64,000 nucleotides of DNA from an uncultured Candidatus Saccharibacteria bacterium (GCA_964437465.1 CAYTGI010000003.1:5731-69730); one strand, 5' to 3'. Positions 3,210 through 63,410 are shown, counted from the stretch's first letter. Notes: a model not told the origin generated them from the sequence alone. Translations and numbers: made by a program.

Positions 3210-3229
3210 AAGTTAAAAATTTAGACGAT

Positions 3230-6590: not shown

Positions 6591-8438
6591 ATGCTTGAAG
6601 GACTTTATAGACTATTAATTGGTCAAAAATACAAGGATTATGAAGAGGATAGATTAATATCTCTTTTTTTTACCAACATTTTTTCGATTCTTGGATTCTT
6701 AATCATATTAGCCTATGGTATTGTTAACCTGTACTTTGGGTTTTTCCTGCCTGCTTTTATGGAGATAGCTTCTTCATTTATTTTATTACTAGTCTTTATA
6801 TATACAAGAAAATCAGGGGATCCTACTAGCTTCAATTATGTAAAAATTGCACTAATTGTTGGTCTGTATGTATATGTATTTTTAACTGGAGGTTCTCAAG
6901 GGACCGGTTTTCTTTGGGTATACACTTTTCCAGTAGCTATTTTCGCAATAACATCTAGTTCTGTAGCAATAGCAGTAACATTATTTTTTTACTCATTTTT
7001 AATCATATTTCAAGTATTAAATTTAATAGGTATTTATTCTTTACCTTACACAGCTGAGGATGTAAATACATTTCTTTTTAGTATTGTTGTTGTTACAGCT
7101 GTTGTGTATTTGCTTAGAGTAAATTTGGAAAAAAGTAACAAAACTATAACGGAGCAAAGAGTAGAGCTTCAAAGGCTAAATCAAAGATACACATCTGAAT
7201 TAGAAAAGAAAAGTATTTTAGAAAAAGATTTTACATTAACAATAAAGAAGTTTAAAGATCAAAATAGTCAACTTGAAAATACAAAGGTGGCAATGATTAA
7301 CCTCCTTGAAGATATCAATGAGGAGAAGAATAGATCTCAAGAGCAAACAGATAGATTAAAGCAGTTTGAAGAAGCAGTGGAAAATGCTAATGATCATATA
7401 GTGTTTACTTCAACAGACGGGGAAATAATCTATGCTAATAAAGCTGTCGAAGAGACCACTGGATTTGAGAAAGAAGAGATTATTGGCAAAACTCCTCGAA
7501 TTTGGGGTGGGCAAATGTCGAAAGAGTTCTATGATGAGTTCTGGCGGACAATAAAGTATGATAAAAAAATATTTAAAGGTGAGGTAATAAATAGAAAGAA
7601 AAATGGAGAACTATATACAGCAAGTATTCAATCTATACCAATTTTAGGAGACTCTGGAGAAATAAAGTTTTTTGTTGGAATAGAAAGAGATATTACTGAG
7701 GATAAAGAAATTGAAAAACTAAAGTCTGAGTTTGTTTCTATAGCTTCACATCAATTAAGAACCCCAGCAACAGGTGTAAAATGGTTTACTGAAATATTAC
7801 TAGATGATAAAGCAGGAGAGCTTAACGATCAACAACGAGAATATATGAAAGAGGTATATCACAGTAATGAAAGAATGCTTAAGTTAATTAATGATCTCTT
7901 AAACGTATCTCGAATAGAAACTGGAAAGAAGTTTACGATAGAAATTAAAACTGTTGATGCAGCAGATATAATAAATCAAGAGATTAAAAATATGAAAATT
8001 ATAGCCGAAAAGAAGAATATAACCATCTTAAAAGATGAAAGTATTCCTAAAAAATTAGAGATAGACTTAGATCCAGATAAATTTTCTCAAGTTATAAAAA
8101 ATCTTATTGATAATGGAATAAAGTACTCACCAGAAAAAACAAAAGTAACTGTGGGGCTTCGTGAGGAGGAAGATAATGCTGTTTTCTGGGTTAAAGATGA
8201 AGGAATTGGAATTCCTGTCGCTCAGCAAGATAGAATATTTGAGAAATTCTTTAGGGCAGATAATGTCCTTAAAGCTGACACTGATGGAACAGGTTTAGGA
8301 CTATATATTGTAAAGGCTATTGTAGAAGGACATCAAGGTAGTGTTAGTTTTGAAACGGAAGAAGGTAAAGGTACAACATTTTTCATTAGTTTTCCAAAAG
8401 AACAACACAGTAAAGATAAGAGAACTATAAGAGTTTAA
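6591..8438 (+). CDS. Membrane sensor histidine kinase with PAS domain
   Basis: About 5 N-terminal transmembrane segments and a coiled coil. PAS-like segment (VFTSTDGEIIYANKAVEETTGF). H-box (SHQLRTP). HATPase N/G boxes (NLIDNGIKYS, GTGLGL). Confidence 0.85.
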   Translation: MLEGLYRLLIGQKYKDYEEDRLISLFFTNIFSILGFLIILAYGIVNLYFGFFLPAFMEIASSFILLLVFIYTRKSGDPTSFNYVKIALIVGLYVYVFLTGGSQGTGFLWVYTFPVAIFAITSSSVAIAVTLFFYSFLIIFQVLNLIGIYSLPYTAEDVNTFLFSIVVVTAVVYLLRVNLEKSNKTITEQRVELQRLNQRYTSELEKKSILEKDFTLTIKKFKDQNSQLENTKVAMINLLEDINEEKNRSQEQTDRLKQFEEAVENANDHIVFTSTDGEIIYANKAVEETTGFEKEEIIGKTPRIWGGQMSKEFYDEFWRTIKYDKKIFKGEVINRKKNGELYTASIQSIPILGDSGEIKFFVGIERDITEDKEIEKLKSEFVSIASHQLRTPATGVKWFTEILLDDKAGELNDQQREYMKEVYHSNERMLKLINDLLNVSRIETGKKFTIEIKTVDAADIINQEIKNMKIIAEKKNITILKDESIPKKLEIDLDPDKFSQVIKNLIDNGIKYSPEKTKVTVGLREEEDNAVFWVKDEGIGIPVAQQDRIFEKFFRADNVLKADTDGTGLGLYIVKAIVEGHQGSVSFETEEGKGTTFFISFPKEQHSKDKRTIRV

Positions 8439-10038: not shown

Positions 10039-10088
10039 AATTTGAGGTAGATTAAATAAGTTTTATGCCTAATAAATTTATATTAAAA

Positions 10089-10348
10089 AACTTACGAGAA
10101 GTAGGGGTCTGGGGGACTTAGCAGTCAACCATGCGAGTAAGTTAGACTTGCTAAGCCCCCAGGACTTTTGCATACTTTTAGTCATAAAAGTATGTATATA
10201 AACTTTTTCTTATCCCTGTACTTTTTATAACTAAAAAGTACCAAAAAGTTTTGGGAAGAATTCCAGCCTATCTCTCAGTTACTCTTTGAGGCACGCATAT
10301 CAAGGAGAATTCTCCCCCTGCCTGCCGTCAGACAGGCAAAACCTCATG
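10089..10348. repeat. Copy A of a ~260-bp palindrome-rich repeat element (inverted relative to copy B)
   Basis: ~95% identical to the reverse complement of 26519-26775. Contains a long hairpin (ctgggggacttagca...tgctaagcccccag) and perfect palindromes catacttttagtcataaaagtatg, gtactttttataactaaaaagtac, ggagaattctcc, and a gcctgccg..caggc terminal hairpin. Confidence 0.85.
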
Positions 10349-23732: not shown

Positions 23733-25706
23733 TTACTCTACACTAGTATCTCTAAACTCACCGAGTTTAGCGAGATCGTCCGGATTTGTAGTTATTAGAT
23801 TATGTTCATTTTCACTTGCAACAACCTGAATAGCAACATGGTTAGCGCCCGCAAAGAAAATACCCTGACCTATTCCTGCTGAAAGTAAGAAAGACTTTTC
23901 TCCTTCAGTTAAATAGAAAACTTTTTGAAGTTTGTCTATCGCAGCTGGAGCCTGTTTTAAAAGAATCTGCATTGAAGCATTATTAACAATCGCCTTACCA
24001 TAATCTGAACTTAAGAAGTCATCTACGTCTTGTGTAATTGTAGTAAGACCTAATCCATATTTCCTAGCCCTTTTAGCGATTTGATATACAAAATAGGCAG
24101 CATCTTCATACTGCATCATAATCCATGCCTCGTCTATAATTAATAACCTCTTTCTTTTATCTTTCTTGATCTTAGTCCATATAAAATCAAGCATTGAGTA
24201 CATCGCCATAGGTCTTAGATCAGGGGTTAAGTCTCTAATACTAAAAGCTGTAAAAGTATTATGGATATCGATGGTAGATTTTTGATCAAAAACACCAGCT
24301 GCACTACCTTTAATGTACCTTTCAAGCCTTCTAGCCATCGAATGAGCTTCTTCTTCAGCCATTGCGTTAAGAACCTTATATAGATCTTCTAGTAGAGGAG
24401 GTTCATTAGCATGAGTAGATTTATCAGGGGTAATTCCTTTCTCAGAATAAGTAAGAATTATAGCTCTATCTAAAATAGCTGCTTCCTCTCCTGTAAGTTG
24501 GCCTCCTAGCATTATTCTAATAAGTCCCGAAACAGATCTAATCTTAAATCTTAATTCATCCTCATCTTGATCGTAGAGTCCTGATAACTCAAAAGGGTTA
24601 AGTTTTTGTTCTCCGTCCTGAGAAAACGATATGTATTCACCTCCAACAGCCTGACATAACCTATCGAACTCTTTTTCAGGGTCAATAATTATTATATCAA
24701 CACCAAGCATTAAAGATCTAACTGCCTCAAGCTTAACTGTGTAAGATTTACCAGAACCAGATGCAGCCAAAACAACTGAGTTTGCATTCGGCAAAGAAAA
24801 TCTATCAAAAATCACTAAAGAGTTATTGTGTAGATTAATTCCATATAGAACTCCTTTTTCCATTGTTAGCTCACTAGAGACAAATGGGAATGTACTTGCA
24901 ATAGCTGTCGTATCCAAGTTTCTAGTCATATTTATTTTATCCAAACCATACGGAATAGTTGTTTGGAAACATTCTTCCTGTTGTAAGGTTGCAACTTTTA
25001 TAATTAATCCAATTGTTGCTGCTGTCGATTCAAGATTTTTTGCAACTTGGTCTAGCTCATCCAATGTATCTGCGTGAATTGTTAAATACATTCCGTACTG
25101 GAAGAACTTCTCATTTCCAGCTGCTAGTTGTTGTTGTAAGTTAAGTGCGTCCTGCAGTTTTTGTTTAATTATTGGATCTCCTTGTTGACCAGCTTTGATT
25201 TCTAGGTTAATAGTAGCTTGAAATTCAGCAATTCTTCTTTTTAAAAGTTTAAGCATTTCAGTTGTATCTTTTGGATAGTAGAAAGTACTTATATCAATTG
25301 GATATTCAAAATTAATTAGTGGTTCTAGCCAATTAGGATTAACAATACTTGGATAATCTACCACGAAGTATGATCTAAAATATCTACTACCTATAACAAT
25401 ATTACTAAAGTTAACTTCAATAGCTGAAGGAGCAATTATATCCTTTACATCAATTAGACCACTAGCAAAATCTTGGATAGCTTTTTGTTCTTTTGATAAA
25501 GCTTGAGCCTCTTTGGAATTTACAGGTTGCTTACTCCTTTTTCCTGTAGAAAATTTTCTTCTTTGGTTATTAATTTTTTGACTTTGAAGTTGTGGATTTG
25601 CCCCTCTTTGAACTACCTGCATCCTTTGAGGTAACTGAGATTGTTGAGTATTACCTACCACTTCCTTTCCATTCTTTTTTGTCTTAAATATGTCAAAAAT
25701 TCCCAT
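23733..25706 (-). CDS. VirB4/TraC-family type IV secretion/conjugation-like ATPase
   Basis: Walker A VVLAASGSGKSY and Walker B LLIIDEAWIMM. N-terminal VirB4-like domain preceded by a Q-rich low-complexity segment. Confidence 0.6.
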   Translation of the reverse strand: MGIFDIFKTKKNGKEVVGNTQQSQLPQRMQVVQRGANPQLQSQKINNQRRKFSTGKRSKQPVNSKEAQALSKEQKAIQDFASGLIDVKDIIAPSAIEVNFSNIVIGSRYFRSYFVVDYPSIVNPNWLEPLINFEYPIDISTFYYPKDTTEMLKLLKRRIAEFQATINLEIKAGQQGDPIIKQKLQDALNLQQQLAAGNEKFFQYGMYLTIHADTLDELDQVAKNLESTAATIGLIIKVATLQQEECFQTTIPYGLDKINMTRNLDTTAIASTFPFVSSELTMEKGVLYGINLHNNSLVIFDRFSLPNANSVVLAASGSGKSYTVKLEAVRSLMLGVDIIIIDPEKEFDRLCQAVGGEYISFSQDGEQKLNPFELSGLYDQDEDELRFKIRSVSGLIRIMLGGQLTGEEAAILDRAIILTYSEKGITPDKSTHANEPPLLEDLYKVLNAMAEEEAHSMARRLERYIKGSAAGVFDQKSTIDIHNTFTAFSIRDLTPDLRPMAMYSMLDFIWTKIKKDKRKRLLIIDEAWIMMQYEDAAYFVYQIAKRARKYGLGLTTITQDVDDFLSSDYGKAIVNNASMQILLKQAPAAIDKLQKVFYLTEGEKSFLLSAGIGQGIFFAGANHVAIQVVASENEHNLITTNPDDLAKLGEFRDTSVE

Positions 25707-26518: not shown

Positions 26519-26775
26519 CATGTGGGGTTTGCCTGCCGGCAGGCAGAGGGAGAATTCTCCTTGTTAAGCGTGCCTCAAAGAGTAACTGAGAGATAGGCTG
26601 GAATTCTTCCCAAAACTTTTTGGTACTTTTTAGTTATAAAAAGTACAGGGATAAGAAAAAGTTTATATACATACTTTTATGACTAAAAGTATGCAAAAGT
26701 CCTGGGGGCTTAGCAAGTCTAACTTACTCGCACGGTTGACTGCTAAGACCCCCAGACCCCAACTTCTCGTAAGTT
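26519..26775. repeat. Copy B of the ~260-bp palindrome-rich repeat element (inverted relative to copy A)
   Basis: Reverse complement aligns along its full length with 10089-10348, with about 12 mismatches or indels. Confidence 0.85.
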
Positions 26776-26872
26776 TGTTATTGCTACTTTATTAGATATA
26801 AAACTAATTATTTTGTATACTCATTCAGTTTTAAGGTGACTTTGGGTCGCTTTGTTGCTATAATATGGTGTC

Positions 26873-40838: not shown

Positions 40839-41255
40839 ATGAGCGAAATACCACAAGGTCCTGTGTATGATGAAAGTAGAAAAGCAGTGCAATCAAGAAT
40901 AGAAAGAGCAAAGCATTACTATGCTAGCAATATAGATACTACTCCATCATTTTATTATGATCAATTAAGAACTTTAGGAGATATAGTTGAAGTTATTGAA
41001 GATTACAGAACCCACATTGATGATGCGTACTATGATGGCTTAATAAATATTAATATTAATGAGTTTTGGGAAAGAATTAAATCTCCTATTATTCAGTCAA
41101 TTAGGGCAAAAGGAATGCAAATAGATTTATCAGATTACCATAATAAAGAAATTATAATGCTGGTATCTTTAGATGTAAATGAGATTATAAGATGTTTTCC
41201 AGATCTTTTTCCATTTGAATTAACTAATATTTCTCCAAATAGTGATAAGAATTAA
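40839..41255 (+). CDS. Hypothetical protein
   Basis: 138-aa ORF with no motif. Confidence 0.3.
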   Translation: MSEIPQGPVYDESRKAVQSRIERAKHYYASNIDTTPSFYYDQLRTLGDIVEVIEDYRTHIDDAYYDGLINININEFWERIKSPIIQSIRAKGMQIDLSDYHNKEIIMLVSLDVNEIIRCFPDLFPFELTNISPNSDKN

Positions 41256-42340
41256 CTTAGTGGATGGTTCTCACGGTGGGCTTCTTCTGCAAATTTATCC
41301 GATGCATGAACGTATCTTGAAGTTGTTTGAAGACTAGAGTGACCTAGAAGTCTTTGGATTGCTGCTGGATTAGCCCCTTCTTCTGCTAAATACGTTGCGA
41401 AACCATGTCTTAGACTGTGCGCGCTTGTTGGAACAATTATTCCTAATTTTCTTCGATAGTCAGCTATTTTCATCTGTATATAGTTTTGTGAAAGTCGAAC
41501 TATATATGGATTCTCTGTAGCTTTTCTTGTTCCTTTTGTTGGAATAAACATTGCTGGGAATTCGTCCGTTCTAAATTTTAAGTATTCATTCATAAAGTGA
41601 ATTGCCCGCTCTGTTAAATAGACAAACCTTTGTTTTTTTCCTTTACCCATTACATAAATTTTATTATCAGCTAGTTGATTATTCTCAATTCTAATCATGT
41701 CTCGATCTAGAGAAGCTACCTCTGAAATTCTCATTCCAGTTGAGAAAATTAATTCTAAAATTGATCTATTTCTAGCAGCAACAACTGGATCATTTTCAAC
41801 TTCACTAGGGTACTCTAAAAGCTTTATTAATTCATCAAGCTCAGCTACCTGTTTTTCTTTTTTTTCAGCTTTAATCATTTTTACTGCATTCGCAGGGATC
41901 GGAGGTTCTTTGTCGATATCTTCTAGAAATGTTAAGTATCTACGAAGGGCAGATAACATTCGATTAACTGAGCTATCTGAAAGCTGACCTTTATATAAAG
42001 CCTTTTTCTTCTCGGAAATCTCCGATCTACTCTTTTCTATTATCTCCTTAGTTAATTCTTCTCCTTTTTGAAATGCATGAAGAATTGGAATATAGTTTTG
42101 ATCTCTTAAGAATCCCTTGTATTCAATAATATCTATTTTAGAAAGTTTCTCGAAAGAAGTTTCAATGTAGTATAAAAACGAAGAAAAGATCTCCAAATCT
42201 CGAGAGTAATTGTCTAATGTTTGTTTTGAATAATTATCATTTTTTAAACTCAAGATAAACTCTCGCATGAGAGGTAACGCATAAGGACTTAAAGTCTTTC
42301 TCGAATTTATATCTTTTACTCTATCTACCGCATCTTTCAT
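41252..42340 (-). CDS. Tyrosine site-specific recombinase/integrase (XerC/D-like)
   Basis: C-terminal catalytic box HSLRHGFATYLAEEGANPAAIQRLLGHSSLQTTSRYVH (R..HxxR..Y) and N-terminal core-binding domain. Confidence 0.85.
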   Translation of the reverse strand: MKDAVDRVKDINSRKTLSPYALPLMREFILSLKNDNYSKQTLDNYSRDLEIFSSFLYYIETSFEKLSKIDIIEYKGFLRDQNYIPILHAFQKGEELTKEIIEKSRSEISEKKKALYKGQLSDSSVNRMLSALRRYLTFLEDIDKEPPIPANAVKMIKAEKKEKQVAELDELIKLLEYPSEVENDPVVAARNRSILELIFSTGMRISEVASLDRDMIRIENNQLADNKIYVMGKGKKQRFVYLTERAIHFMNEYLKFRTDEFPAMFIPTKGTRKATENPYIVRLSQNYIQMKIADYRRKLGIIVPTSAHSLRHGFATYLAEEGANPAAIQRLLGHSSLQTTSRYVHASDKFAEEAHRENHPLS

Positions 42341-47649: not shown

Positions 47650-47670
47650 AAATCTAGTTGGTCCTATAGC
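47650..47670 (+). pseudogene. tRNA 5'-fragment (acceptor + D-arm-like, GGTCCTATAGCTCAACCGGTA) immediately upstream of tRNA-Lys
   Basis: 21 nt closely matching the 5' part of the adjacent tRNA (GGGCTGATAGCTCAATCGGTAGAGC). No anticodon arm, T-arm or 3' half follows. Confidence 0.5.
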
Positions 47671-47681
47671 TCAACCGGTAT

Positions 47682-47764
47682 CCCGAAGAATGGGCTGATA
47701 GCTCAATCGGTAGAGCAGTTGCCTCTTAAGCAATTGGTTCTGGGTTCGAGTCCCAGTCAGCTCA
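47682..47764 (+). tRNA. tRNA-Lys (CTT)
   Basis: Cloverleaf GGGCTGA/GCTC-AATCGGTA-GAGC/GTTGC-CTCTTAA-GCAAT/CTGGG-TTCGAGT-CCCAG/TCAGCTC-A. Flanked by the 11-bp inverted repeat tcccgaagaat/attcttcggga. Confidence 0.8.
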
Positions 47765-47964
47765 TTCTTCGGGATTAAGCGATTGGTTGTGGGCTCCGAA
47801 AATTAAAATCCAAAGGATTTTAAAATTTTCGAGAGTCCTCGTTTTTCTATTGAAGACAAAATTAAAGAAAAAACGGGATTCGAGTCCAACCCGGATCATA
47901 AATAGGAAAAAAAGAATGAATTTTGATTTTGGAGACTAATGAAGAAATATATAGCAACTAAGGT

Positions 47965-49491: not shown

Positions 49492-49734
49492 TAATACATC
49501 TTAAATAAATAGTCTTTACATGTAAATTACATTTATTTAAGAATAGTAGCTTATGAGGTATAATTCATAGCAACTTACTTGGTGGCTATTGCTCCCCGCA
49601 AGGCGGGACTAATGTGGTCATATATTTTTACTACAATACGTTTGTAAAAATGTGACCTTATTGAGCAGTCTCCAACTTCGCTATTTGTATATCTATGTTG
49701 ATATAGTGAAGAAATGACATTACATAGAGTATTT

Positions 49735-49763
49735 GGTGGCTATAGCTCAGTTGGTAGAGCGTC
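49735..49763 (+). pseudogene. tRNA 5'-fragment (GGTGGCTATAGCTCAGTTGGTAGAGCGTC) upstream of tRNA-His
   Basis: 29 nt nearly identical to the first 29 nt of the adjacent tRNA-His, then diverges. A shorter similar piece (ggtggctattgctcc) lies at 49581-49595. Confidence 0.5.
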
Positions 49764-49783
49764 AAAGTTTTAGATTATAGTGG

Positions 49784-49860
49784 GGTGACCGTAGCTCAGT
49801 TGGTAGAGCGTCGGTTTGTGGTACCGAATGTCGTGGGTTCGAGCCCCATCGGTCACCCCA
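49784..49860 (+). tRNA. tRNA-His (GTG) with encoded G-1 and CCA
   Basis: G-1 then GTGACCG/GCTC-AGTTGGTA-GAGC/TCGGT-TTGTGGT-ACCGA/GTGGG-TTCGAGC-CCCAT/CGGTCAC-C-CCA. Confidence 0.85.
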
Positions 49861-49876
49861 CTGTAATTTAGAAGAG

Positions 49877-49926
49877 GTTTGCCTGCCTGCCGGTAGGCAG
49901 GTGGTACCGAATGTCACGGGTTCGGA
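49877..49926 (+). repeat. Third copy of the gcctgcc-ggcaggc hairpin motif, followed by a tRNA-His 3'-arm-like fragment
   Basis: ggtttgcctgcctgccggtaggcagg matches the terminal hairpin of the 260-bp element. It is followed by ggtggtaccgaatgtcacgggttcggac, close to the tRNA-His anticodon-arm and T-arm sequence. Confidence 0.6.
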
Positions 49927-50221
49927 CTTAATTTTCTAAACGATCCCGATACAATCGGGAGAGTTTATAGAAAATTTGTTCCCGTTTCGGGAGCCCCGTT
50001 AGCCACCCAAAGATTTTTTCTGCAGTTTATAATACACTCAAAAAGTTGACAGTATTAGGAAAATTTTACTCTAATAAAATATATTATAGGTGGTTTAAAA
50101 TCGTTTTAAGTATCAAAACACCATTTTTTTATAGTTTTTAAATATATTTGAGAAAATTCTTCTTTTTGAATAACTCAGTTTGAAGTAAAAAATTGTTTTT
50201 CTTTAACTTTATAAGCTAAAC

Positions 50222-50503
50222 TTGAATGTGAAGTACAATGCATTTGCTTTGATTGAAATTATTGTTGTAGCAGCTTTAATTGCTTTTTTATCAACAATAA
50301 CATTCATTGCTATTAGTCCATCTCAAAACTTTCAGGATGTAAATAGTGCTCTAAGAAAACAGGAGCTTCTAGTAATAGTAAATGCTATTGAATTATACCA
50401 ATTAGACAACAATGGCAATTTCTCATTATTACGTGGTCAGTTCCCTGTACCAATGTACGATATTTCTTTAGCTAATATTAGAATTGATACTGGTACTTGT
50501 TAG
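50222..50503 (+). CDS. Type IV pilin/pseudopilin-like small protein
   Basis: N-terminal KYNAFALIEIIVVAALIA resembles the prepilin leader and hydrophobic stem, with Glu at +5 after a putative NA|F cleavage. Confidence 0.4.
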   Translation: MNVKYNAFALIEIIVVAALIAFLSTITFIAISPSQNFQDVNSALRKQELLVIVNAIELYQLDNNGNFSLLRGQFPVPMYDISLANIRIDTGTC

Positions 50504-54410: not shown

Positions 54411-57400
54411 TTATTTTTTTCTTTTATATTTACTATATTTTCTATTTTGTCTTCTATCTTTTTTAAACTTATCACCAAAAGTGATACAAGAAGCTACCGC
54501 CCCAATTATTACTACTATTAAAACGAGATTAGTTAAATTAAACCCAGTAGGAAGTAGTTCTGAAATAAATGTTTCTTCAGTTTCATCAGTTTCTGAGGAT
54601 TGCTCTCCTTCTTCTGCTGTTAATTCCCAAACTGTTGGATCTATTGGCATCTCTGTTGAAGGGTCATCGGTACATACTGGTTGTTGATTAAATTCAATCT
54701 CATCGTTAATATCTCCGTCTTGATCATCATCCCAGTTTCCGCAGGCTTGATTTTGGACCATAATCATATCCTCAGGTATTGTAATTCTAAAAGTTAAAAC
54801 CACTTCATTTTCTGAATTTTCCTCATCAGTTCCTCCTGGATCAGGACCAATATTTCCTTCCCATACTAATTCCTCTGATATTTCGTTATACATGCAGTTA
54901 GTTGTTATTGAAATACCTCTAGGTTCACATGTAAAACTATTATCAACATAACTTGTTCCTTCTGGAATTGTATCTACAAGAATTACATCTAAAGCTTCAG
55001 TATTTCCATCATTCATCCATACCTGTTTCCATTCAAGCTCAGGTAAGCCCACTTCATTAAAAACTTTCTTTCCTGTAGGAGGGTCGAAAACGTTAGAATA
55101 AACAACTGGAGTTTCGGTAAAGTCTTCATTATCATCATCGTCTTCTTCATCAGAATATTTGTAAGAAATATAGACTTGGTTGTCTATCGTTTCAATTAAG
55201 GAATCATTTAGCTCTCTAACATCAACAGCAAAAACAACATCTCCAGATTCTCCAACTTCAAGATACCCTAGAGGAAACGCACAAACACTTCCAGCATTTC
55301 CATTTGGATCACAAATCCAGCCTGGGGTGCTTAGTGAAGAGTTGAAAGTAGTATTTTGTGGGACGTATTCAGTTATTACAGCATCTTCAGCATCCATATC
55401 ACCTCCATTTCCATAATTCAGTGTATATAAAAGTGTTTCTCCATATCCTATTTCTTCAACTTGAGGTTCTTTATCTATTCCTAAATTAGGTTTTGCGTCA
55501 ATATCGTCAGTATCAGTATCCTGATTATCATCAGGATTAAAATCTGGACCGTATTCTTCATCATAGTTTATTGAAGCAGCATTATAAATCTGATCCTCTC
55601 TAGCAGGTAAACTGTTATCCACATCTACAGCAAATAGAACTTCGTCTGTTTCTCCTGCTCCTAAGGATCCATAATCAAATACACATAGCTGATCAGGTTC
55701 TTCGTCGGTTGTGGAGCATGACCATCCTGGAGTACTATCTGATGAGTTAAAGCTAGTAAATTCTGGGGTAAAATCCTCTATTAACACATTGTTGGCGGTT
55801 GTGTTACCTTTATTTTCTATAGAAAGTGTATAGATTATAGTTTGTCCTGCATTAACAATTGTAAGTCCATCATCCTTAACAATAGATAAGTCTATCTCTC
55901 TTCTTACAGGGGTATCTTCATCGTCACTATTATTACCTGGTGTTAAGTCAGGACCACTTGCCCAGTCATCACTAATAGATATTGTATTATCTATTTGATT
56001 AACACTTTCTGGCATAGAACTGTTGACAGTTACAACAAATAAAGCTGATCCAGTATCTGATGGATTTAAGGTTCCAACAGAGTACGTACATGTACTTCCA
56101 GCTGTATCATCCGGAGCGCATATCCATCCTGGAGTACTAGACCCGCTATCAAAGGTAGTATATTCCGGTACAGTTTCTGTCAAAATTACATTTGTTGATG
56201 TTTGGTTTCCAGCATTTTCATAGAAAATATTATAAACAATCTGTTCTCCATTAAATACATCAATACCTGAATCATTTTTTGTAACAACAAGATCTGGACC
56301 TGCAATGACAGGTGTAACTTCAGAATCACTATTGTCACCAGGGTTTTCGTCAGTTCCATTTGTGCCATCATCTGAAATTGTAACGTTATTAGTTACATCG
56401 TTTACTCCTCCTGGGAAGACTGCATCTGTATCTACAACAAAATCAACTGATCCGCTATCACCAACATCAAGATCGCCAATAGAGAAAGTACAAGTACTAC
56501 CATCATTATTATCAGGAACACATGACCATCCAGGAGTGCTTGATCCTGGATTAAAAGTTGTATTATCAGGAACTACATCAGTAAGTACAACTCCTGTTGC
56601 ATCTTGACTTCCCACATTTGAATAGTCAATTGTATAGGTTATTGGATCTCCAGGAGGAACTGTAACATTACTATCCCCTTTTGAAACTTGTAAATCAGGA
56701 GCTGCTGTAACTGGTGTTGTATCTGGATCATCATTATTTGCAGGAGTTGGGTCAGCTCCGTTTGTCCCATCATCACTGATTGAGGCTGTATTATCAATTT
56801 CATCGTATCCAGAAGGTAAGGTTGTGTCTAAATCAACTGCAAAAGTTATAGAACCTGAATCACCTGCATCTAGATCGCCAATTGAGAAAGTACATGTACT
56901 GCCTTCGTTATTATCAGGAACACATGCCCATCCTGAAGTACTCGTAGCGCTATTAAATGTTGTACCAGTAGGAACATTATCTGTTATCTCAACTCCAGTA
57001 GCATCTTGATTACCAGAATTTGTATAGTCTAAAGTGTATGAGACAGTATCTCCTGGTAAGGCTGTTGCTCCTCCATCATCTTTAGTTATTTCTAAATCAG
57101 GTGCAGCATCAAGAGGATCAGTATCGGTACTTGTATTATTTCCTGGAGTTGGATCATCACCATGAGTTCCATCATCTGAAACATCTGCAGTATTAGTAAA
57201 GTTATCTATTCCAGATGGAATATTAGAGTCTATATCAACAGCAAAGTCTATTGTCGTGTTTGCTCCGTCAGTCAAGGTTCCAACTGAATACGTACAAGTG
57301 CTTCCAGAAGAGTTATCTGGTAGACATGTCCAACCTGGTGAACTTGATCCGTTATTAAAAGTTCCATAATCTGGCACTGTATCTGTAATCTCTACATTAT

Positions 57401-60400
57401 CAGCTTGAAAATCACCAACATTCTCAATAAACAGTGAATAAACGGTAGTTGAACCAGGAGTTACAGAATTAACTCCATTAGATTTTGTTATCTCTAAATC
57501 TGGAGCAGTAATAGTTAAGTCATCTTGTGCATCAATATCGTTCGTAGTTCTCTCATTAGGATTTGAACCATCAATGCTTGAATACTGGTTGATAGTAGCA
57601 GTATTAGTAATGACATCACCTCTTGATTGTCCAGTATCAATAGTTACGTCAAAAGTTATTGTACTTGTATCTCCAACTGCTAAAGTTGCCCATGAAGCTG
57701 TGATTGTTCCTCCAGACTCACTTAATGTGTCTGGTGCTACTCCAGAGTCGTGTGTTAAGTTTCCATCAAAGGTTAAACCTGATGGTAGTGGATCTTCTAA
57801 ATCTATTTCAAATGCATCACTTGTACCAGTATTTTCTATAGTTATCGTAACCTCAATTGAGTCGTTTACTGGTGCTTGATCAGGATTAAAGTTTTTTGTG
57901 ATAGTAATTTCAGGTTCAACTACTGTTGTTGTTACATCATTTGAAATACTTGGAGTTCCGCTATTAACAGTAATCTCAGCATTATTAACCAAATCTGTTT
58001 GTCCTGGAGGAAGACCATCGTTTCCAACTACATCTAATACATCAGCTTCAAGCTGAATTGTGAAAGTATTATTACTTGGATTTCCATCAACTGGAACTGA
58101 AAATGCTCCGAAAGAGAATGTTACAGGATTTCCACTTGAAGCTCCTCCTGAAATTGTTGGACTTGGTACAGTACCGTTAAATCCTGTTGAATCAACTGTT
58201 CCAGATCCAGAAACATACTGCATACCGTTTGGGATATTATCTACTACTTCAAGTGATGTTATAGAACCCTCAGGAACTATTACTTCAATCTCATAGGTAA
58301 CTGTTTCTCCTATTGTTACCTCACTTCCAGCAGTATAAGTCTCAGAAGTTGTTACAAGAGATTTTGTAGTAGTAGAAGACTCAAGTGTAACTGGTGCAGA
58401 GTCAGAATCATTATAGTCATTTATAAGAAATCCAGAACCATCTCTTTCTCCATCACCATCTCCTGAATTACCTGGGATATTTGATCCTGTAGGATTACTG
58501 GTTGTTCCTGTTCCAGGAAGACTAGTATAGGTTAGATCTGCTGTATTAGGAATTGTTGTTCCGACTAGAACAGCGTTGTCAACAGTTCCACTTAGATCTA
58601 TTGTTAGAGTTTCACCAGGTTCAAGAAAGCTTATTGAGACATCTACTAGGTTACCTGGAATATTAGAATTATCTGTTACAACTCCAGAACCTGAAGCAGA
58701 TGGAGTTACTGAAGATAAAATAACATCAGAGTCTATTGAATCTAATACATTTACATCATAAGCATTCAAAGCATTATTTCCTGTAGAGGTATTAGTCACT
58801 ACAATCTGATACTCAATGGTGTCTCCAGCATCAAGTGGAGTGGTAGTAACTGACTTTGAAATGTCTAGCTCTGGCTCAGCAACTATCACACTGACGTTTG
58901 ATGAGTTAGATCCAACTGTACTTATCCCAACATAACCTTGGAACCTATTGTTAAGGGTAATTCCTGACTGATTCCCTGATTCATTTAAAACTAAAGCATT
59001 AAACTCAACGACAATATATTCATTATCTGCATCTCTATCATCATTTGTAATATCTCCAAATTTAAAGTAAATATCAGTTCCACTAGAGTAAGAGTCTGAA
59101 TTGGAGGTAGAGTTGCTAGAAATTGCATCATCAGGTAGTTCACACTCCGGAGTGAATGAATCTACGTTTGCTTCATTCCCAGTAAAATTAAGGTCTGGGT
59201 TTGCTCCACCAGTACATCCTAAACCTCCCGGGGTTAAAGTTGTTGAGGTTGTTGTAGCTGCATTAGATATAAATGCTACGAATGAAGTTCCGTCATTTAA
59301 AAATTGCATTCCATCAGGGAGTCTATCCCTAAATTTGAAGTCAGGTGTTATCCCTTCAGCGACTCTTGCTTCAAGTCTATATCTTACTATTTCTCCAATA
59401 GCAACTCTTTCAGTTCCCGCAACATTGGTTGAATGTGCTTCAGAGGTGGAAACTATAGATTTATTAGGAAATGGTTCGAATACATTTATTGTAGCGCTAT
59501 CCTCAGTAAAGTAATCGTTAGCGCTTCCTCCTGGATCACCAGTATTTCCAGTTCTCTCTGTAGAGTTAGTATTAAAAGTAGATTGAGCAGTTGTAATATC
59601 TCCTGGTAATGAAGTCCACTCAACCTCTGCATCATTATCTATTGTTTGCCCTGTAAAAACAGTATTATCTAGTGTAACGTCGTAAGTTAATGTACAATCC
59701 TCTCCTAGTGGTAATTCATCAATCGTTGCTATTAAAGTAGGAGCCCCAGTATCATTTAAAACAGGTGGTGTTATTACTCCAGCTGAACATGAAAAGTTAA
59801 ACGTTGCAGCAGTATAAGTAAGATCGGAAGGAATGACATCATCAAAGCTAACATTATAAGCATTTAGATCACTATTACCGGTGTGTGAAATAGTAACTGA
59901 ATATTGAACTGTATCTGACGCATCTGCAGATGTTGGAGAAGCACTTTTACTAACTTGAAGATCAGGTTCTCTAATAGTTACATTCGGTGCATTATCACTA
60001 ACTTGTCCTAAGCTCCAACTTAACTCTGCATCGTTATTTCTATTTTGATTTCTTACATTTGCTGCAGTATTTAGTACAACTACGTCGTAAGTTATAGTTA
60101 TAGTTTCATCCGTTAAGTTATCTGTGTCACTATTTGTTAAGGTTCCAAAATCAAAAGTTATGTCTTCCCCTGAGTTTATTGCCGTTGAGTTACTACATAC
60201 ATCCCCAAATGTACCAATACTTGTTGAAAGTCCTGCTGAAGCTACTATTGATGAACAACTTACGAATGCTAGACCAGTATCTAGAGCATCATTTACAATT
60301 GCTGAAGTGAGTGTTCCTTCAGGTATAGTTAGCTCAACTTCATAAGTTATTATTTCTCCAATAGCAACATTGTTACCTGAAGTATGAGCTTGATTTGTTG

Positions 60401-63400
60401 AGTCAATGGTTTTGTCAACTAAAGGTGTTAAAGTAGTCACTTCTGCAGTATCAAACCTTGGTTCAACCATGTGGTTATCACCATTTTCAACTCCTGCATA
60501 GTTAAAAATATCAGCAGTGTTAGTAATAACCTCTTCTGGTTCTACTGATGTGGTTAACTCAAGATCATATGTAATAACTGCTATATTTCCGCCACTAGTT
60601 GAAGAGAAAGAGTCAAGAGATCCTTGTGTAGGGCTTGGGTTCGTTAGCACAATTCCATCTTCAAATATAGGATTGACATCTGTACCATCAATAGGAGTGT
60701 TCGCCAAAGAGTTTCCAGCTCCATCTGTTATACATAAATTTAACCCAGATCCAGGAATTTGAAATCCAGCTTCAAGTGTGTCTTTGAATTGAACATCAAA
60801 AGCACCGTTTACTCCACTTCCTTCATTTTCTAAAACAATAGCAAAGGTTACAATATCACCTGCATCTAAATCAGAAATATCACTATTTATTTCAGTTGTA
60901 TCTAATGCATTAGAAGAAACTGTACCTGTAAACCTCTGACATCCACCACCTGGAGCTGAAAAACTAACAGGAGAAAAAGGATCAGGATCATAAACTGGGC
61001 TTTCTCCATTTGTTGCTACAACTCCTTTTGTTATTTGTATGTCAGGTTGAGTTAGCTCAAATTGAATTATTGAGTCTGCTACTTCAGAACTTAAGTTAGT
61101 AGAACCTTCATTACTTCTTATCTGATTAGTTAAAAATAAGCCATCAGCAAAAGGATCATCAGCAGCGTTAATAGTAAATAGAAGATCGATCTGACTACTT
61201 TGTGTACTTGGATCATCAAAATCTCCATAATCTATTGTAAGTTGGTTAGCTGAAGTTGTTGTAGATAATGTCGGAACAAGCCCAGGAGAACCTAGGACTC
61301 CTACAGTTATGTCGTAGAGTGTGTCTGTTGGTCCAAATTTAACTACACCAGCTGCTGGAGGGGAGGATGTGTAACCTCCGTCTGTCGGACTAGTACTATC
61401 GAAAGTCCATGCTGGCCCAATTACTTCATCAGCATCTGGATCATCTACTTGGAAAACAGGTAGTGGGAAAAAATCGTCAAATGATACTTCTTCAAAGTCA
61501 GAAGTTGGTAATGTAAATTCTACTCTAAAAGTTATTGAATCTCCAGGAGCTACTTGAACAGGAGGAGTGAAAGATGTATTTCCGTTAATAGCATAAATTG
61601 TTTTTGATATTGATCCTCTCTCAATTCCAACAGAAGCACTACTCTCATCGGCTTCCGTAGAGCCTGTAGGGGAAAATGAACTATTATCTAAGACTGATCC
61701 CTCAATACTCACATCATTTGTTAACGTATCTCCTTGGTCAACACTTGGATCTCCTGAAGGAAAATCATCAGAAAATGATTCTTGAATAATTGTTCGATAT
61801 GTAACCGTCCCTGTTGTAGCCCCGTCATTAAAGCTATCACAATCTGGGGTTACAGTCCCTGTTTGTTCAATACATCCTCCAAGTACATTAGCATCTAAAG
61901 CTCTAGTTACCAACTCGTCAGAGATATTAAAAATAATTGTGGTAGTTCCATCATTAGGAGCGGGATCAGCTGGAGTATAGTTTGACAAAACTTCGTAATT
62001 TGCTAAATCAAAATTGCCACTGCTAGTTGATCCGTGCTCAGTTAAAGATAGAGTAGGTGTAAATGTATCGTCAAATCTTTGTCCATCAGAAATAACGTCT
62101 GTGGAGACTATATCAGTAAAACTGAAAAAATCGGAAATTTGGAAGCTATATGTATATTCCAAAACATCTCCTGGAGAATTCCCAGGTGAATTATTATCTT
62201 GAAAAACGGAAACTGATTTTTGAATTGCAATAGATTTGTCTGTAAGAGTGTGATCATTACTTGTTATGTCTGAAGATACGGGTGTTGGTAAATCTCTTGT
62301 ATCTATTGGGTCCCAGGTTCCTTCAGCTGCTGCATCATTTACAGAAGTTGTATCGTTTCCAGTAGTTTCTGAAATTATTAATGAAGAATTGGCATCTTCA
62401 TAGGGTACAAAGAATGAAAATGTTACAGAAGCATCGTTACTTCCTGTACCTCCAGTAACACTTGTACATGTAATTCTAAGTTCGTTATTTGGTGGATTTT
62501 GAGCTCCTGGTGTAGATGGCTCAGTATTTGTGGAACAAGTACCAGGAGAAACACTATCTACTTGTAAATATTCAATATTATCTGGGAGATAATCAATTAG
62601 ATCAAAATCATCTATAGTTTGTCCATCAGCTATATCAGCCGTTATTGTATACTGTCTTGGGAAATTAGGTCCTGTTGCTGTTTCAGACTCTGGCCCGATG
62701 TATGATTTACTAATTGAAAATAGAGTTGGTGTTAGAGATGAGGTGCTAAAAGTCTCAGTAATACTTGGATCGGATGTTGGATTATCTAGGGGATCTTCTC
62801 CAAATTGAAATCCTCCTCTAGCTTGAACATCTAAAGCAGTTGATAAATCAGCGTTTTCACTCATAGATACATTAACAGTTACATCCGCTGTAGGTTGTAA
62901 ATCAGTAAATGATCCAAAAGGTAGTTGAAGAGTGACTAAGGTATCTCCTGCAGTTCCACATATAGATAAAGGTGTATTTGGAGCAGTAACTGCATAGGGA
63001 TGATCTACGCATCCAGTACCTAACCCATCATCTGGAAATTCTTGGACAATGCTTGTAACAGAAGATCCTAAATATGTGGCACTTACAAAACTAAGTCCAT
63101 CTGCTTCGTCTCCAGGTCCAAAAGGAAAAATACCATCAGCTCCTGTGTTAGGGAAAATTAAATCTATAAATGGACCGTATCCAGTATCTGCACCACTATT
63201 ATTAAAGCTAACATTAAAAGAAAAATCTTCTCCTAATAATGATTCAGAAGGTAAAGAAGCAGAAACACTAGGAACAGCTGCAGCTTCTGTTTGACCTGTA
63301 AAAAAAATACTTAGTGCTGAGAATGCAATCGAGCTTGACGTTATTATAGCTAATGACACTACAGAATATCTAAGTGCCTTCTTTTTTAAATTCCTAGTGT

Positions 63401-63410
63401 TGATTTTCAA
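54411..63410 (-). CDS. Giant (2999 aa) cell-surface protein with multiple DUF11-type repeats and C-terminal LPXTG sorting signal
   Basis: N-terminal signal peptide. At least nine ~150-aa repeats open with P[DE]L.[IV][ST]K and carry GSTCT[FY]S..L. The C-terminus has LLPTGF, a hydrophobic helix and the tail KKDRRQNRKYSKYKRKK. Confidence 0.8.
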   Translation of the reverse strand: MKINTRNLKKKALRYSVVSLAIITSSSIAFSALSIFFTGQTEAAAVPSVSASLPSESLLGEDFSFNVSFNNSGADTGYGPFIDLIFPNTGADGIFPFGPGDEADGLSFVSATYLGSSVTSIVQEFPDDGLGTGCVDHPYAVTAPNTPLSICGTAGDTLVTLQLPFGSFTDLQPTADVTVNVSMSENADLSTALDVQARGGFQFGEDPLDNPTSDPSITETFSTSSLTPTLFSISKSYIGPESETATGPNFPRQYTITADIADGQTIDDFDLIDYLPDNIEYLQVDSVSPGTCSTNTEPSTPGAQNPPNNELRITCTSVTGGTGSNDASVTFSFFVPYEDANSSLIISETTGNDTTSVNDAAAEGTWDPIDTRDLPTPVSSDITSNDHTLTDKSIAIQKSVSVFQDNNSPGNSPGDVLEYTYSFQISDFFSFTDIVSTDVISDGQRFDDTFTPTLSLTEHGSTSSGNFDLANYEVLSNYTPADPAPNDGTTTIIFNISDELVTRALDANVLGGCIEQTGTVTPDCDSFNDGATTGTVTYRTIIQESFSDDFPSGDPSVDQGDTLTNDVSIEGSVLDNSSFSPTGSTEADESSASVGIERGSISKTIYAINGNTSFTPPVQVAPGDSITFRVEFTLPTSDFEEVSFDDFFPLPVFQVDDPDADEVIGPAWTFDSTSPTDGGYTSSPPAAGVVKFGPTDTLYDITVGVLGSPGLVPTLSTTTSANQLTIDYGDFDDPSTQSSQIDLLFTINAADDPFADGLFLTNQIRSNEGSTNLSSEVADSIIQFELTQPDIQITKGVVATNGESPVYDPDPFSPVSFSAPGGGCQRFTGTVSSNALDTTEINSDISDLDAGDIVTFAIVLENEGSGVNGAFDVQFKDTLEAGFQIPGSGLNLCITDGAGNSLANTPIDGTDVNPIFEDGIVLTNPSPTQGSLDSFSSTSGGNIAVITYDLELTTSVEPEEVITNTADIFNYAGVENGDNHMVEPRFDTAEVTTLTPLVDKTIDSTNQAHTSGNNVAIGEIITYEVELTIPEGTLTSAIVNDALDTGLAFVSCSSIVASAGLSTSIGTFGDVCSNSTAINSGEDITFDFGTLTNSDTDNLTDETITITYDVVVLNTAANVRNQNRNNDAELSWSLGQVSDNAPNVTIREPDLQVSKSASPTSADASDTVQYSVTISHTGNSDLNAYNVSFDDVIPSDLTYTAATFNFSCSAGVITPPVLNDTGAPTLIATIDELPLGEDCTLTYDVTLDNTVFTGQTIDNDAEVEWTSLPGDITTAQSTFNTNSTERTGNTGDPGGSANDYFTEDSATINVFEPFPNKSIVSTSEAHSTNVAGTERVAIGEIVRYRLEARVAEGITPDFKFRDRLPDGMQFLNDGTSFVAFISNAATTTSTTLTPGGLGCTGGANPDLNFTGNEANVDSFTPECELPDDAISSNSTSNSDSYSSGTDIYFKFGDITNDDRDADNEYIVVEFNALVLNESGNQSGITLNNRFQGYVGISTVGSNSSNVSVIVAEPELDISKSVTTTPLDAGDTIEYQIVVTNTSTGNNALNAYDVNVLDSIDSDVILSSVTPSASGSGVVTDNSNIPGNLVDVSISFLEPGETLTIDLSGTVDNAVLVGTTIPNTADLTYTSLPGTGTTSNPTGSNIPGNSGDGDGERDGSGFLINDYNDSDSAPVTLESSTTTKSLVTTSETYTAGSEVTIGETVTYEIEVIVPEGSITSLEVVDNIPNGMQYVSGSGTVDSTGFNGTVPSPTISGGASSGNPVTFSFGAFSVPVDGNPSNNTFTIQLEADVLDVVGNDGLPPGQTDLVNNAEITVNSGTPSISNDVTTTVVEPEITITKNFNPDQAPVNDSIEVTITIENTGTSDAFEIDLEDPLPSGLTFDGNLTHDSGVAPDTLSESGGTITASWATLAVGDTSTITFDVTIDTGQSRGDVITNTATINQYSSIDGSNPNERTTNDIDAQDDLTITAPDLEITKSNGVNSVTPGSTTVYSLFIENVGDFQADNVEITDTVPDYGTFNNGSSSPGWTCLPDNSSGSTCTYSVGTLTDGANTTIDFAVDIDSNIPSGIDNFTNTADVSDDGTHGDDPTPGNNTSTDTDPLDAAPDLEITKDDGGATALPGDTVSYTLDYTNSGNQDATGVEITDNVPTGTTFNSATSTSGWACVPDNNEGSTCTFSIGDLDAGDSGSITFAVDLDTTLPSGYDEIDNTASISDDGTNGADPTPANNDDPDTTPVTAAPDLQVSKGDSNVTVPPGDPITYTIDYSNVGSQDATGVVLTDVVPDNTTFNPGSSTPGWSCVPDNNDGSTCTFSIGDLDVGDSGSVDFVVDTDAVFPGGVNDVTNNVTISDDGTNGTDENPGDNSDSEVTPVIAGPDLVVTKNDSGIDVFNGEQIVYNIFYENAGNQTSTNVILTETVPEYTTFDSGSSTPGWICAPDDTAGSTCTYSVGTLNPSDTGSALFVVTVNSSMPESVNQIDNTISISDDWASGPDLTPGNNSDDEDTPVRREIDLSIVKDDGLTIVNAGQTIIYTLSIENKGNTTANNVLIEDFTPEFTSFNSSDSTPGWSCSTTDEEPDQLCVFDYGSLGAGETDEVLFAVDVDNSLPAREDQIYNAASINYDEEYGPDFNPDDNQDTDTDDIDAKPNLGIDKEPQVEEIGYGETLLYTLNYGNGGDMDAEDAVITEYVPQNTTFNSSLSTPGWICDPNGNAGSVCAFPLGYLEVGESGDVVFAVDVRELNDSLIETIDNQVYISYKYSDEEDDDDNEDFTETPVVYSNVFDPPTGKKVFNEVGLPELEWKQVWMNDGNTEALDVILVDTIPEGTSYVDNSFTCEPRGISITTNCMYNEISEELVWEGNIGPDPGGTDEENSENEVVLTFRITIPEDMIMVQNQACGNWDDDQDGDINDEIEFNQQPVCTDDPSTEMPIDPTVWELTAEEGEQSSETDETEETFISELLPTGFNLTNLVLIVVIIGAVASCITFGDKFKKDRRQNRKYSKYKRKK

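Follow-up and report, generated by a model that had tools for sequence, protein, structure and literature searches.

The stretch of DNA analyzed here (the window) comprises 64,000 nucleotides from an uncultured Candidatus Saccharibacteria bacterium and is AT-rich, with a GC content of about 31%. Among named organisms, the best relatives of its proteins are from Candidatus Dojkabacteria, which assigns it to the CPR/Patescibacteria. The window contains a locus in which a working tRNA-His gene (the inner gene) is nested in an older, complete tRNA-His gene (the outer gene or shell) that is split by three inserts. All features of this locus lie on the plus strand. In a consensus scan, the sole good promoter match 5' of the entire nested locus is a predicted sigma-70-like promoter, TTAAGA-16-TATAAT, at 49537–49564, which would serve the locus. 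It is followed at 49579–49607 by the first copy of an 11-nt direct repeat, TTGGTGGCTAT, corresponding to the leader and the acceptor 5' strand, and then by a further GC hairpin, CCCGCAAGGCGGG, at 49595–49607 (hairpin census); the second copy of the repeat is at 49734–49744. The stretch at 49579–49607 probably represents what is left of an older 5' piece, or else a partial duplication, and the repeat together with the hairpin suggests an older remnant layer.

The outer gene begins with piece 1 (49735–49763), which was assigned by alignment to the inner gene and contains G-1, the acceptor 5' strand, the D arm, and positions 26–28. Insert 1 (49764–49875, 112 nt) lies between positions 28 and 29 and carries the inner tRNA on a 24-bp stem, seen in the MFE fold and the helix table, in which 49768–49791 are paired with 49850–49873 and three of the pairs are G·U. 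The inner gene, an intact tRNA-His(GTG) at about 49784–49860 with encoded G-1 and CCA, was called by ARAGORN and matched the Rfam tRNA model at 66.1 bits, and the Rfam alignment displays the same extended stem as the MFE fold. Piece 2 (49876–49880), the GGTTT of positions 29–33, was read directly and is needed for the joined cloverleaf. Insert 2 (49881–49900), identified from the sequence and the hairpin census, is a 20-nt GC hairpin between positions 33 and 34 in the anticodon loop of the outer gene, and its junction has no flanking duplication. Piece 3 (49901–49924), also assigned by alignment to the inner gene, runs from the anticodon GTG to T-loop position 57. Insert 3 (49925–49991, 67 nt; sequence, fold, and hairpin census) lies in the T loop between positions 57 and 58 and consists of a long hairpin with the arms AATTTTCTA/TAGAAAATT and the tip TCCCGAT-ACA-ATCGGGA, with another small hairpin 3' of it. 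Both junctions of insert 3 contain T-loop sequence (TTCGGAC and TTCGGGAGC), with a duplication of 5–7 nt. Piece 4 (49992–50007), recognized by complementarity and ARAGORN, supplies T-loop positions 58–60, the 3' strands of the T stem and the acceptor stem, and C73. Direct reading shows a CAAAGATTTTTT run at 50008–50020, 3' of the outer acceptor stem; it is likely to be the putative terminator of the whole unit, and the terminator scan made no call at 50008–50020.

The pieces of the outer gene were evaluated by local alignment against 300 shuffled 800-nt sequences, for which the best null score was 22. Piece 1 is identical to positions −1 to 28 of the inner gene at 26 of 29 nucleotides (local score 43). 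An earlier note on this DNA had reported that the segment just downstream of the hairpin copies tRNA-His, and the alignment agrees: 49901–49924 matches positions 34–57 of tRNA-His at 22 of 24 nucleotides, with a local score of 38. That note had taken the segment for a partial 3' duplicate next to the hairpin, a description that has to be abandoned because the hairpin interrupts the anticodon loop of a second, complete gene, the 5' piece of which is present as well. Local alignment further detected a 3' end at 49991–50008. The four outer pieces are collinear with the intact gene and together span the whole tRNA. In piece 4, TAGCCACC is complementary to the upstream GGTGGCTA (8/8, acceptor stem), and CCCGT is complementary to ACGGG at 49916–49920 (5/5, T stem). 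ARAGORN identified the joined outer pieces as a tRNA-His(GTG) with all stems perfectly paired, and the outer gene shows no point damage despite its three inserts.

The inner and outer genes differ at nine positions, all in the acceptor and T stems, and full pairing is kept in both. A tRNA-His pattern scanned against genome contigs matched 21 loci in many phyla, and among them was an uninterrupted Saccharibacteria tRNA-His (L005) that is identical to the joined outer gene at 73 of 74 positions; the inner gene is identical to the tRNA-His of another Saccharibacteria genome (L017) at 69 of 74. The stretches that the inner and outer genes share without a difference are a 21-nt D arm and a 15-nt anticodon arm. 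This shared central sequence does not point to gene conversion, as the tRNA-His anticodon arm is conserved across many phyla, which is also why the pattern scan returned so many of them. Exact-protein look-ups for the genes neighboring the tRNA-His locus found none on record, the contig of the best permease homologue was not syntenic with the window, and the homologue search with the CHASE-PAS neighbor found only itself.

Folding of the 296-nt region gave nested cloverleaves as the MFE structure (dG −131.6 kcal/mol, z = −9.7). The hairpin census detected two perfect hairpins with at least five G-C pairs in the 64-kb window, and both are within 49595–49992, as are 4 of the 18 hairpins with at least four G-C pairs. 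A second nested-type locus was found on the plus strand at 47660–47907, where a tRNA-Lys(CTT) gene (47692–47764; tRNA call, fold z = −8.4) is enclosed by TCCCGAAGAAT/ATTCTTCGGGA and by CAACCGGT/ATTGGTTG. On its 5' side is a tRNA-like 5' fragment, GGTCCTATAGCTC, and on its 3' side an AT-rich hairpin followed by a degenerate T-arm-like remnant (47874–47907). The outer shell of this locus is degenerate and could be parsed only in part. The nested layout with inverted repeats is found at two of the four tRNAs in the window.

The hairpin that had been noticed at 49877–49901 is present as the 20-mer CCTGCCTGCCGGTAGGCAGG at 49882–49901 or, equally, at 49881–49900, owing to an ambiguous G; CCTGCC pairs with GGCAGG in the stem, and GGTA forms the loop. 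In the 64 kb there are just three occurrences of the hairpin's 9-mer CTGCCTGCC, at 10318, at 49883, and, as the reverse complement, at 26538, against an expectation of about 0.02 per strand. The sites at 10318 and 26538 are the 3' ends of two repeats of ~280 nt that are 94% identical to each other, repeat 1 on the plus strand (10055–10334) and repeat 2 on the minus strand (26530–26809). Motif search and the hairpin census place the copy CTGCCTGCCGTCAGACAGGCA at 10318–10338 (plus strand) at the end of repeat 1 and the copy CTGCCTGCCGGCAGGCA, a perfect palindrome, at 26530–26546 (minus strand) at the end of repeat 2. The resemblance to the ends of these elements that the earlier note had pointed out is therefore real, but the match covers only 16 of 17 nt and nothing else is shared. 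The ~280-nt repeat had no Rfam match, no viral match, and no homologue in any fetched locus, and the genes downstream of its two copies are unrelated. The 3' flank of the hairpin in the outer gene is TGGTACCGAATG, with no T-run, and the terminator scan made no call there, so the hairpin does not have the character of an intrinsic terminator. This 20-nt hairpin may be a remnant, may be a mobile palindrome in its own right, or may have been there beforehand as a target site.

Metagenome contigs were scanned with a pattern of two D arms 20–50 nt apart, and at least 120 contigs matched. At least 32 unique loci have an outer acceptor 5' strand that pairs 7/7 across an intact inner tRNA with a downstream strand adjoining a 5/5 T arm; among the matches listed, the outer acceptor stem pairs at 7/7 in 32 loci, at 6/7 in two, and at 5/7 in two. 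The other scan matches are partial duplications in simple tandem arrangement. In 22 of the 44 7/7-paired matches among those listed, a single excision restores a 7-nt loop with U33 and the anticodon of the inner gene, and in the remaining half the loop is not restored in this way. When introns were allowed, ARAGORN called many of the loci as tRNAs whose "intron" of 104–170 nt is the inner tRNA, and the clean intron calls have the same anticodon as the inner gene (Val, Ile(TAT), Lys, Thr(GGT), and Phe). The position of the insert within the anticodon loop varies among the metagenome loci, and the duplications at the junctions measure 0–7 nt. The inner genes are almost always on a long inverted-repeat stem, the median flank duplex having a dG of −16.4 kcal/mol (31 loci). 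Some loci have several layers (L088, L038, and L052), and in tRNA-Thr the shell and the occupant (GCCGTTG and GCCGACG) are swapped between contigs.

The two contigs that were checked belong to Candidatus Jorgensenbacteria and Candidatus Falkowbacteria, both of which are CPR bacteria, and the nested architecture was also found on contigs of 235 kb and 775 kb. The same architecture is thus frequent in CPR metagenome contigs, and the locus in the window shares its features: an intact inner tRNA, 7/7 outer pairing, the same anticodon, inverted-repeat flanks, and an uninterrupted counterpart. A scan of viral sequences for paired D arms returned two simple 5' remnants only. Our literature search, which left most subscription journals outside its range, found no report of bacterial tRNA genes nested in tRNA genes, and the architecture is apparently undescribed in CPR bacteria.

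The flank stems of the nested loci group into families, and one of these families connects them with the hairpin in the window. In the tRNA-Thr and tRNA-Val loci L046, L048, L057, L065, L099/L136, L119, and L139, the flanks are (C)GCCTGCC...GGCAGG(C), which are the arms of the window hairpin; in L065 the insert is between positions 31 and 32 of an otherwise perfect tRNA-Thr, and in L139 there is, as in the window, an additional palindrome inserted in the T loop of the outer gene. The exact 20-mer of the window is found at L088:1135–1154, within the outermost remnant of a three-layer tRNA-Thr locus. L086 has a tRNA-Thr remnant with a loop-less palindrome, CCTGCCTGCCGGCAGGCAGG, between its positions 9 and 10, and a shorter loop-less core, GCCTGCCGGCAGGC, lies just 3' of the D arm of the outer gene in L040/L059/L124. 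The earlier note had also suggested that the hairpin is an attachment end of the repeat family. The part of this that stands is that its arms are the ends of tRNA inserts; there is no sign of the ~280-nt repeats themselves inserting at tRNA genes, which was looked for in the window and the fetched loci. Outside tRNA genes, the palindrome occurs in L114 (after a stop codon and before a T-run), in L102 (intergenic), and in the ~280-nt repeats. Many copies of the full 20-nt palindrome are found in IMG/VR contigs, and direct repeats flank some of them (14 nt in L184 and 8 nt in L164); these matches are mostly in GC-rich contigs, in which a 16-nt GC pattern is expected by chance.

The order of events was examined at an orthologous tRNA-Val locus by comparing the conserved neighborhood L19/tRNA-Leu/tRNA-Val(TAC)/tRNA-Phe/tRNA-Gly/3D-domain gene among relatives chosen by their 3D-domain protein, which is about 70–78% identical to the L095 query. 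The tRNA-Val gene is un-nested in four lineages (L265, L267/L273, L271, and L276) and nested in three (L269, L095, and L110). L269 has a D-loop insert with the flanks CCCCCACACC/GGTGTGGGGG, and L095 and L110, in which the two genes flanking the tRNA-Val locus are about 64% identical, have anticodon-loop inserts with the flanks TTCACCCCG/CGGGGCAAG. Because the orthologous loci in relatives are un-nested, the inserts are secondary, and because their positions and flanks differ, at least two independent insertion events took place. The inner tRNA of L269 is the outer shell of L095, where it has gained an extra G, so that one excision cannot restore its loop. Between L095 and L110, the flank stem keeps its pairing through a change from G-C to A-T, and the outer anticodon stems differ by compensatory pairs. 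Taken together, the role swaps, the multi-layer loci, and the sporadic nesting indicate serial replacement followed by loss of the shell.

From these results, we consider that the inserts probably arose at the DNA level, by insertion into the loop regions of tRNA genes, and that the nested copy replaces the broken gene. The inserts would enter as DNA, preferentially where the tRNA gene encodes loops or junctions, and the likely agent would be a recombinase that acts in trans on symmetric stem-loop sequences, in the way that integrases act on the anticodon loop and the T loop. Insertion would kill the resident tRNA gene, and selection would spare only those inserts that bring a tRNA of the same anticodon, which would account for the matching anticodons. 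The promoter-less nested copy would be transcribed from the promoter of the outer gene through to the outer terminator; the use of outer transcription signals is suggested by the position of the sole good promoter upstream of everything and of the T-run beyond the outer acceptor stem. The nested tRNA would then be freed from its long stem by RNase P and 3' processing, and the outer shell would gather more small palindromic inserts and eventually be deleted. The hairpin in the window would belong to the insert family with GCCTGCC...GGCAGG ends, either as a member without cargo or as what remains of one after internal deletion. In the flank stems, the transition mismatches comprise 10 G·U and 9 A·C; these are similar in number, so there is no bias toward pairing in the sense-strand RNA, as expected of decaying DNA inverted repeats.

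A broader form of the insertion reading is that CPR bacteria carry undescribed mobile miniature cassettes, each with a promoter-less tRNA and conserved inverted ends, that target a gene of the same anticodon, replace it, and turn over serially, leaving "onion" loci and empty hairpins. We put this forward tentatively and give it somewhat less than an even chance. The nearest tyrosine recombinase gene (Phage_integrase family, 41252–42340) is 7.4 kb from the tRNA-His locus, with the SHMT and FolD genes between them; it has XerC/D-type domains and looks housekeeping-like. No recombinase gene is adjacent to the tRNA-His locus in the window, and a Pfam scan of about 30 ORFs found no transposase.

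Several observations fit less easily with the insertion reading, among them the distance of the only tyrosine recombinase gene, the compensatory differences between L095 and L110, and the copies of the palindrome outside tRNA genes. The outer shells are strikingly intact, that of the window included, which fits very recent insertion with fast deletion and equally fits selection on the outer gene. Duplication lengths of 0–7 nt are not what a classical transposase or one overlap region of fixed length would leave. In addition, insert 1, at 28/29, is in a stem and not in a loop. Retro-insertion of a mature tRNA was also considered, as the inner gene encodes CCA and the other tRNAs of the window do not; it was rejected because elsewhere the inner and outer genes are either both with or both without CCA.

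Other explanations of the locus were weighed against insertion and replacement. The three inserts could be introns, in which case the outer gene would be alive and one transcript would yield two tRNA-His molecules. The flawless cloverleaf obtained by removing the inserts, 73/74 identical to a working gene elsewhere, agrees with this, as do the overwhelmingly perfect outer acceptor stems, the 22 of 44 perfect-acceptor shells among the matches listed that regain the right anticodon loop by one excision, and the pairing maintained between L095 and L110 in both the flank stem (G-C to A-T) and the outer anticodon stems. However, inspection of the sequence and the MFE structure found no bulge-helix-bulge geometry at the hairpin junctions, no match to a ribozyme or group I model was found with Rfam in the window or in ten nested loci, and the other half of the shells cannot regain their anticodon. 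Also against splicing are the similar frequencies of G·U and A·C in the flank stems, the sporadic nesting at orthologous loci, where the insert position differs, and the decay of shells, as seen when the L095 outer gene is set against the L269 inner gene and in the tRNA-Lys locus of the window. We know of no bacterial enzyme that splices at 28/29, 33/34, or 57/58, and we regard RNA splicing of the outer gene as unlikely; spliced outer genes are less likely than mobile cassettes. Still less support can be given to mis-assembly, by which shared k-mers would have led two strain variants of tRNA-His to be joined. The contig was assembled from a metagenome, and the 21-nt and 15-nt identities could have allowed such a switch, but the unique flanks form precise stems, which k-mer switching would not produce, and the same architecture is present in dozens of independent assemblies, including the contigs of 235 kb and 775 kb. 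This explanation is extremely improbable.

Two further explanations concern the hairpin itself. It could be a generic GC palindrome, either a terminator or a REP-like protein-binding site, that is present in a dead shell by chance; its occurrence after a stop codon and with a T-run in L114, in the intergenic region of L102, and at both ~280-nt repeat ends is consistent with this, as are its many copies in IMG/VR contigs, some with direct repeats (L184 and L164). The earlier note had considered that the hairpin might turn out to be a ubiquitous terminator, and the data speak otherwise: the window copy has no T-run after it, and the motif is rare, with three sites in 64 kb. Moreover, the hairpin falls precisely between positions 33 and 34 of the anticodon loop, the nested tRNA-Thr and tRNA-Val inserts have its arms as their conserved ends, and the palindrome is also found within tRNA remnants (L086 and L040). 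Coincidence of this kind is quite unlikely. Alternatively, the downstream tRNA segment could be a displaced att copy left by the integration or excision of an element, with the hairpin as the element end. tRNA-targeting tyrosine integrases use the anticodon loop and the T loop as sublocations, which matches two of the three insert positions; there is T-loop sequence at both junctions of insert 3, and a tyrosine recombinase gene is within the window. In its literal form, this explanation is contradicted by the 5' half upstream and the collinearity of all pieces, and the compensatory differences mean that neither tRNA copy is a recent duplicate of the other. The flanks are inverted and not direct repeats, and the inserts of 20–112 nt contain no island or integrase, the recombinase being 7.4 kb off. 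An att-site origin is accordingly very unlikely. Of the insertion footprint that had been proposed for this locus, insertion at a tRNA gene is retained, but the footprint is not a duplicated 3' att segment, since the collinear pieces make up a whole gene.

None of the known systems that we compared fits the defining features tested. Integrase islands at tRNA attB sites also target tRNA genes, insert at positions corresponding to 33/34 and 57/58, and leave tRNA fragments behind, and the loop sequence at both T-loop insert junctions is a further likeness. In contrast, the window inserts, of 20–112 nt, contain neither an integrase nor cargo genes, what the element supplies is an entire tRNA to replace the old one and not a displaced 3' segment, and the flanks are mutually pairing inverted repeats with both halves of the old gene in place. 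An att footprint would consist of a direct repeat of the 3' part only at the far end of an island, whereas here the copy is 41 nt from the intact gene; the integrase would be inside the element beside the tRNA, and the nearest one is at 41252–42340. The sublocations agree at 33/34 and 57/58, and the insert at 28/29 does not fit them.

Disrupted tRNA genes of archaea are similar in another respect. Nanoarchaeum split tRNAs have GC-rich complementary leaders, and Thermoproteales have multiple non-canonical introns; the window locus likewise has several short structured interruptions at non-canonical positions, a perfect cloverleaf after their removal (ARAGORN tRNA-His(GTG), all stems paired), and GC-rich helices beside the junctions. 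It differs in having a CPR bacterial host and, by inspection, no bulge-helix-bulge: neither arrangement of two 3-nt bulges separated by a 4-bp helix could be drawn. It also differs in that an insert holds a complete tRNA of the same anticodon, nesting is sporadic, and shells decay. A Pfam search for a splicing endonuclease or an RtcB-type ligase found no match among about 30 ORFs of the window, which represents 64 kb of the genome. Bacterial group I introns share the anticodon-loop position in a bacterial tRNA gene, but the nested inserts are 20 nt in one case and 67–170 nt in the others, with no catalytic core and no Rfam match. Group I introns have such a core and a length over about 200 nt; the window inserts are 20, 67, and 112 nt, and the search was performed at the gathering threshold and at E ≤ 5 over 49500–50230 and ten nested loci.

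Palindromes of the MITE, REPIN, or IS200/IS605-derived type are also short and GC-rich with conserved inverted ends, are present in several copies per genome and with the same sequence in unrelated genomes, and are flanked by direct repeats in some cases. The multicopy inverted ends are found here as well, in the form of the CCTGCC/GGCAGG arms, the 20-mer of L088, and the variants in L086, L114, L040, and L102. The type found in the window differs in its very low copy number, its preference for tRNA loops, the tRNA gene carried by many members, and the variable length of its duplications, and no linked transposase was found in the ORFs scanned. Integron attC sites resemble the nested loci in that imperfect hairpins surround a small promoter-less cassette that depends on external transcription, and the conserved unpaired motifs inside the stem of the Ile(TAT) family are another likeness. 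We observed neither an IntI gene nor an attI site or cassette array here. The motif order in attC is R''...R', and the Val-family flanks GTTAGAT...ATCTAAC, which were considered as attC cores, were rejected because their order is the opposite.

The tRNA genes are among the most conserved genes of any genome, and to our knowledge those of bacteria are normally uninterrupted except for rare group I introns. If insertion and replacement is correct, an essential single-copy tRNA gene is recurrently replaced by a new copy inside the old one, which would amount to a new way for very small genomes to turn over genes and exchange them horizontally. Such replacement could explain odd GC-rich palindromes in AT-rich genomes and would point to a recombinase or nuclease that recognizes folded tRNA-like DNA. 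If the shells were spliced instead, this would be the first multi-intron tRNA processing in Bacteria and would overturn what is, as far as we know, the prevailing view that protein-dependent tRNA splicing is absent from them. Annotation is affected as well: standard tRNA finders call only the inner gene and miss the shell, and their intron options give wrong anticodons for the shell.

The window contains, besides the tRNA-His locus, a second nested locus, in which an intact tRNA gene lies within a broken outer one. At 47660-47907, tRNA-Lys(CTT) is carried by a 19-bp extended stem (TCCCGAAGAAT/ATTCTTCGGGA), with a further 8-bp pairing outside it, and is enclosed by a degenerate tRNA-like shell. 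The 5' fragment of this shell is GGTCCTATAGCTC, and its other parts are an AT-rich hairpin (approximately 47806-47841) and a T-arm-like remnant (47874-47893). The tRNA-Lys(CTT) locus is the older of the two nested loci.

Around the 5' end of the tRNA-His locus, an 11-nt direct repeat, TTGGTGGCTAT, corresponding to the leader and the acceptor 5' strand, occurs in two copies within 49579-49744, with copy starts 155 nt apart. The copies bracket 144 nt (49590-49733), and this stretch opens with the GC hairpin CCCGCAAGGCGGG. The arrangement may represent a third, outermost tRNA-His remnant, or it may be a partial tandem duplication. Just downstream of the locus, a small ORF (50222-50503, plus strand) encodes a protein whose N terminus (NAFALIEIIVVAAL) resembles that of type IV pilins, and no Pfam match was found for it.

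The CCTGCC/GGCAGG hairpin present in the outer tRNA-His gene also forms the end of each of the two repeats of about 280 nt. Past this end the two copies retain weaker similarity, and each has a small hairpin resembling a terminator. Repeat 1 (10055-10334, plus strand) and repeat 2 (26530-26809, minus strand) are 94% identical and mutually inverted, and together they bound a segment of 16.2 kb. Computed folding predicted a strong structure for the repeats (z = -5.3), and they had no match in Rfam and no homologue in the fetched loci. The genes downstream of the two copies are unrelated to each other. The repeats could be a small RNA gene of unknown kind present in two copies, or they could be long inverted termini belonging to a 16.7-kb element. 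A TraG/VirB4-like P-loop ATPase gene (23733-25706, minus strand) lies inside the inter-repeat segment, about 0.8 kb from repeat 2, and is a hint of a conjugative or secretion module.

Among approximately 30 ORFs scanned in the window, the only recombinase was a tyrosine recombinase of the XerC/D type (41252-42340, minus strand) with Phage_integrase and SAM-like N-terminal domains. The same window contains a giant ORF of 2999 aa (54411-63410, minus strand) with internal repeats of period 402 nt (repeat families D1 and D2, 55312-57398). Free-standing endonuclease genes were found in two contigs that have the tRNA-Leu/Val/Phe/Gly cluster, just past the 3D-domain gene located after it: two LAGLIDADG ORFs in a nested lineage (L269:3579-5273) and HNH in an un-nested lineage (L271:3118-3588).

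At five nested tRNA-Ile(TAT) loci (L100, L106, L128, L068 and L094), the flank stems have in common an unpaired motif that is conserved: the 5' strand reads A(A/C)GAG and, facing it, the 3' strand reads CGAGTGA(A/G). The paired sequence around it is variable. CGAAG occurs near the 3' junction in L100, L106 and L094. The unpaired motif may serve for recognition by a protein or be kink-like. Downstream of the nested tRNA-Ile(GAT) in contigs L052 and L092 is an array of two extra tRNA-Ile 3' halves without matching 5' halves (in L052, minus strand, approximately 2785-3300 of the reverse complement); their acceptor strands differ, and their short spacers have a CTCGCC motif in common.

A perfect 20-nt palindrome, CCTGCCTGCCGGCAGGCAGG, was present in many viral contigs (IMG/VR), with several copies in a single contig in, for example, L147, L173 and L262. 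In some of them it is flanked on either side by direct repeats, of 14 nt in L184 (TCTCGTCTCTCGCT; palindrome at 8396-8415) and of 8 nt in L164 (CACAGAGA; palindrome at 1660-1679), and on this sequence arrangement it looks as if it were a tiny insertion itself.
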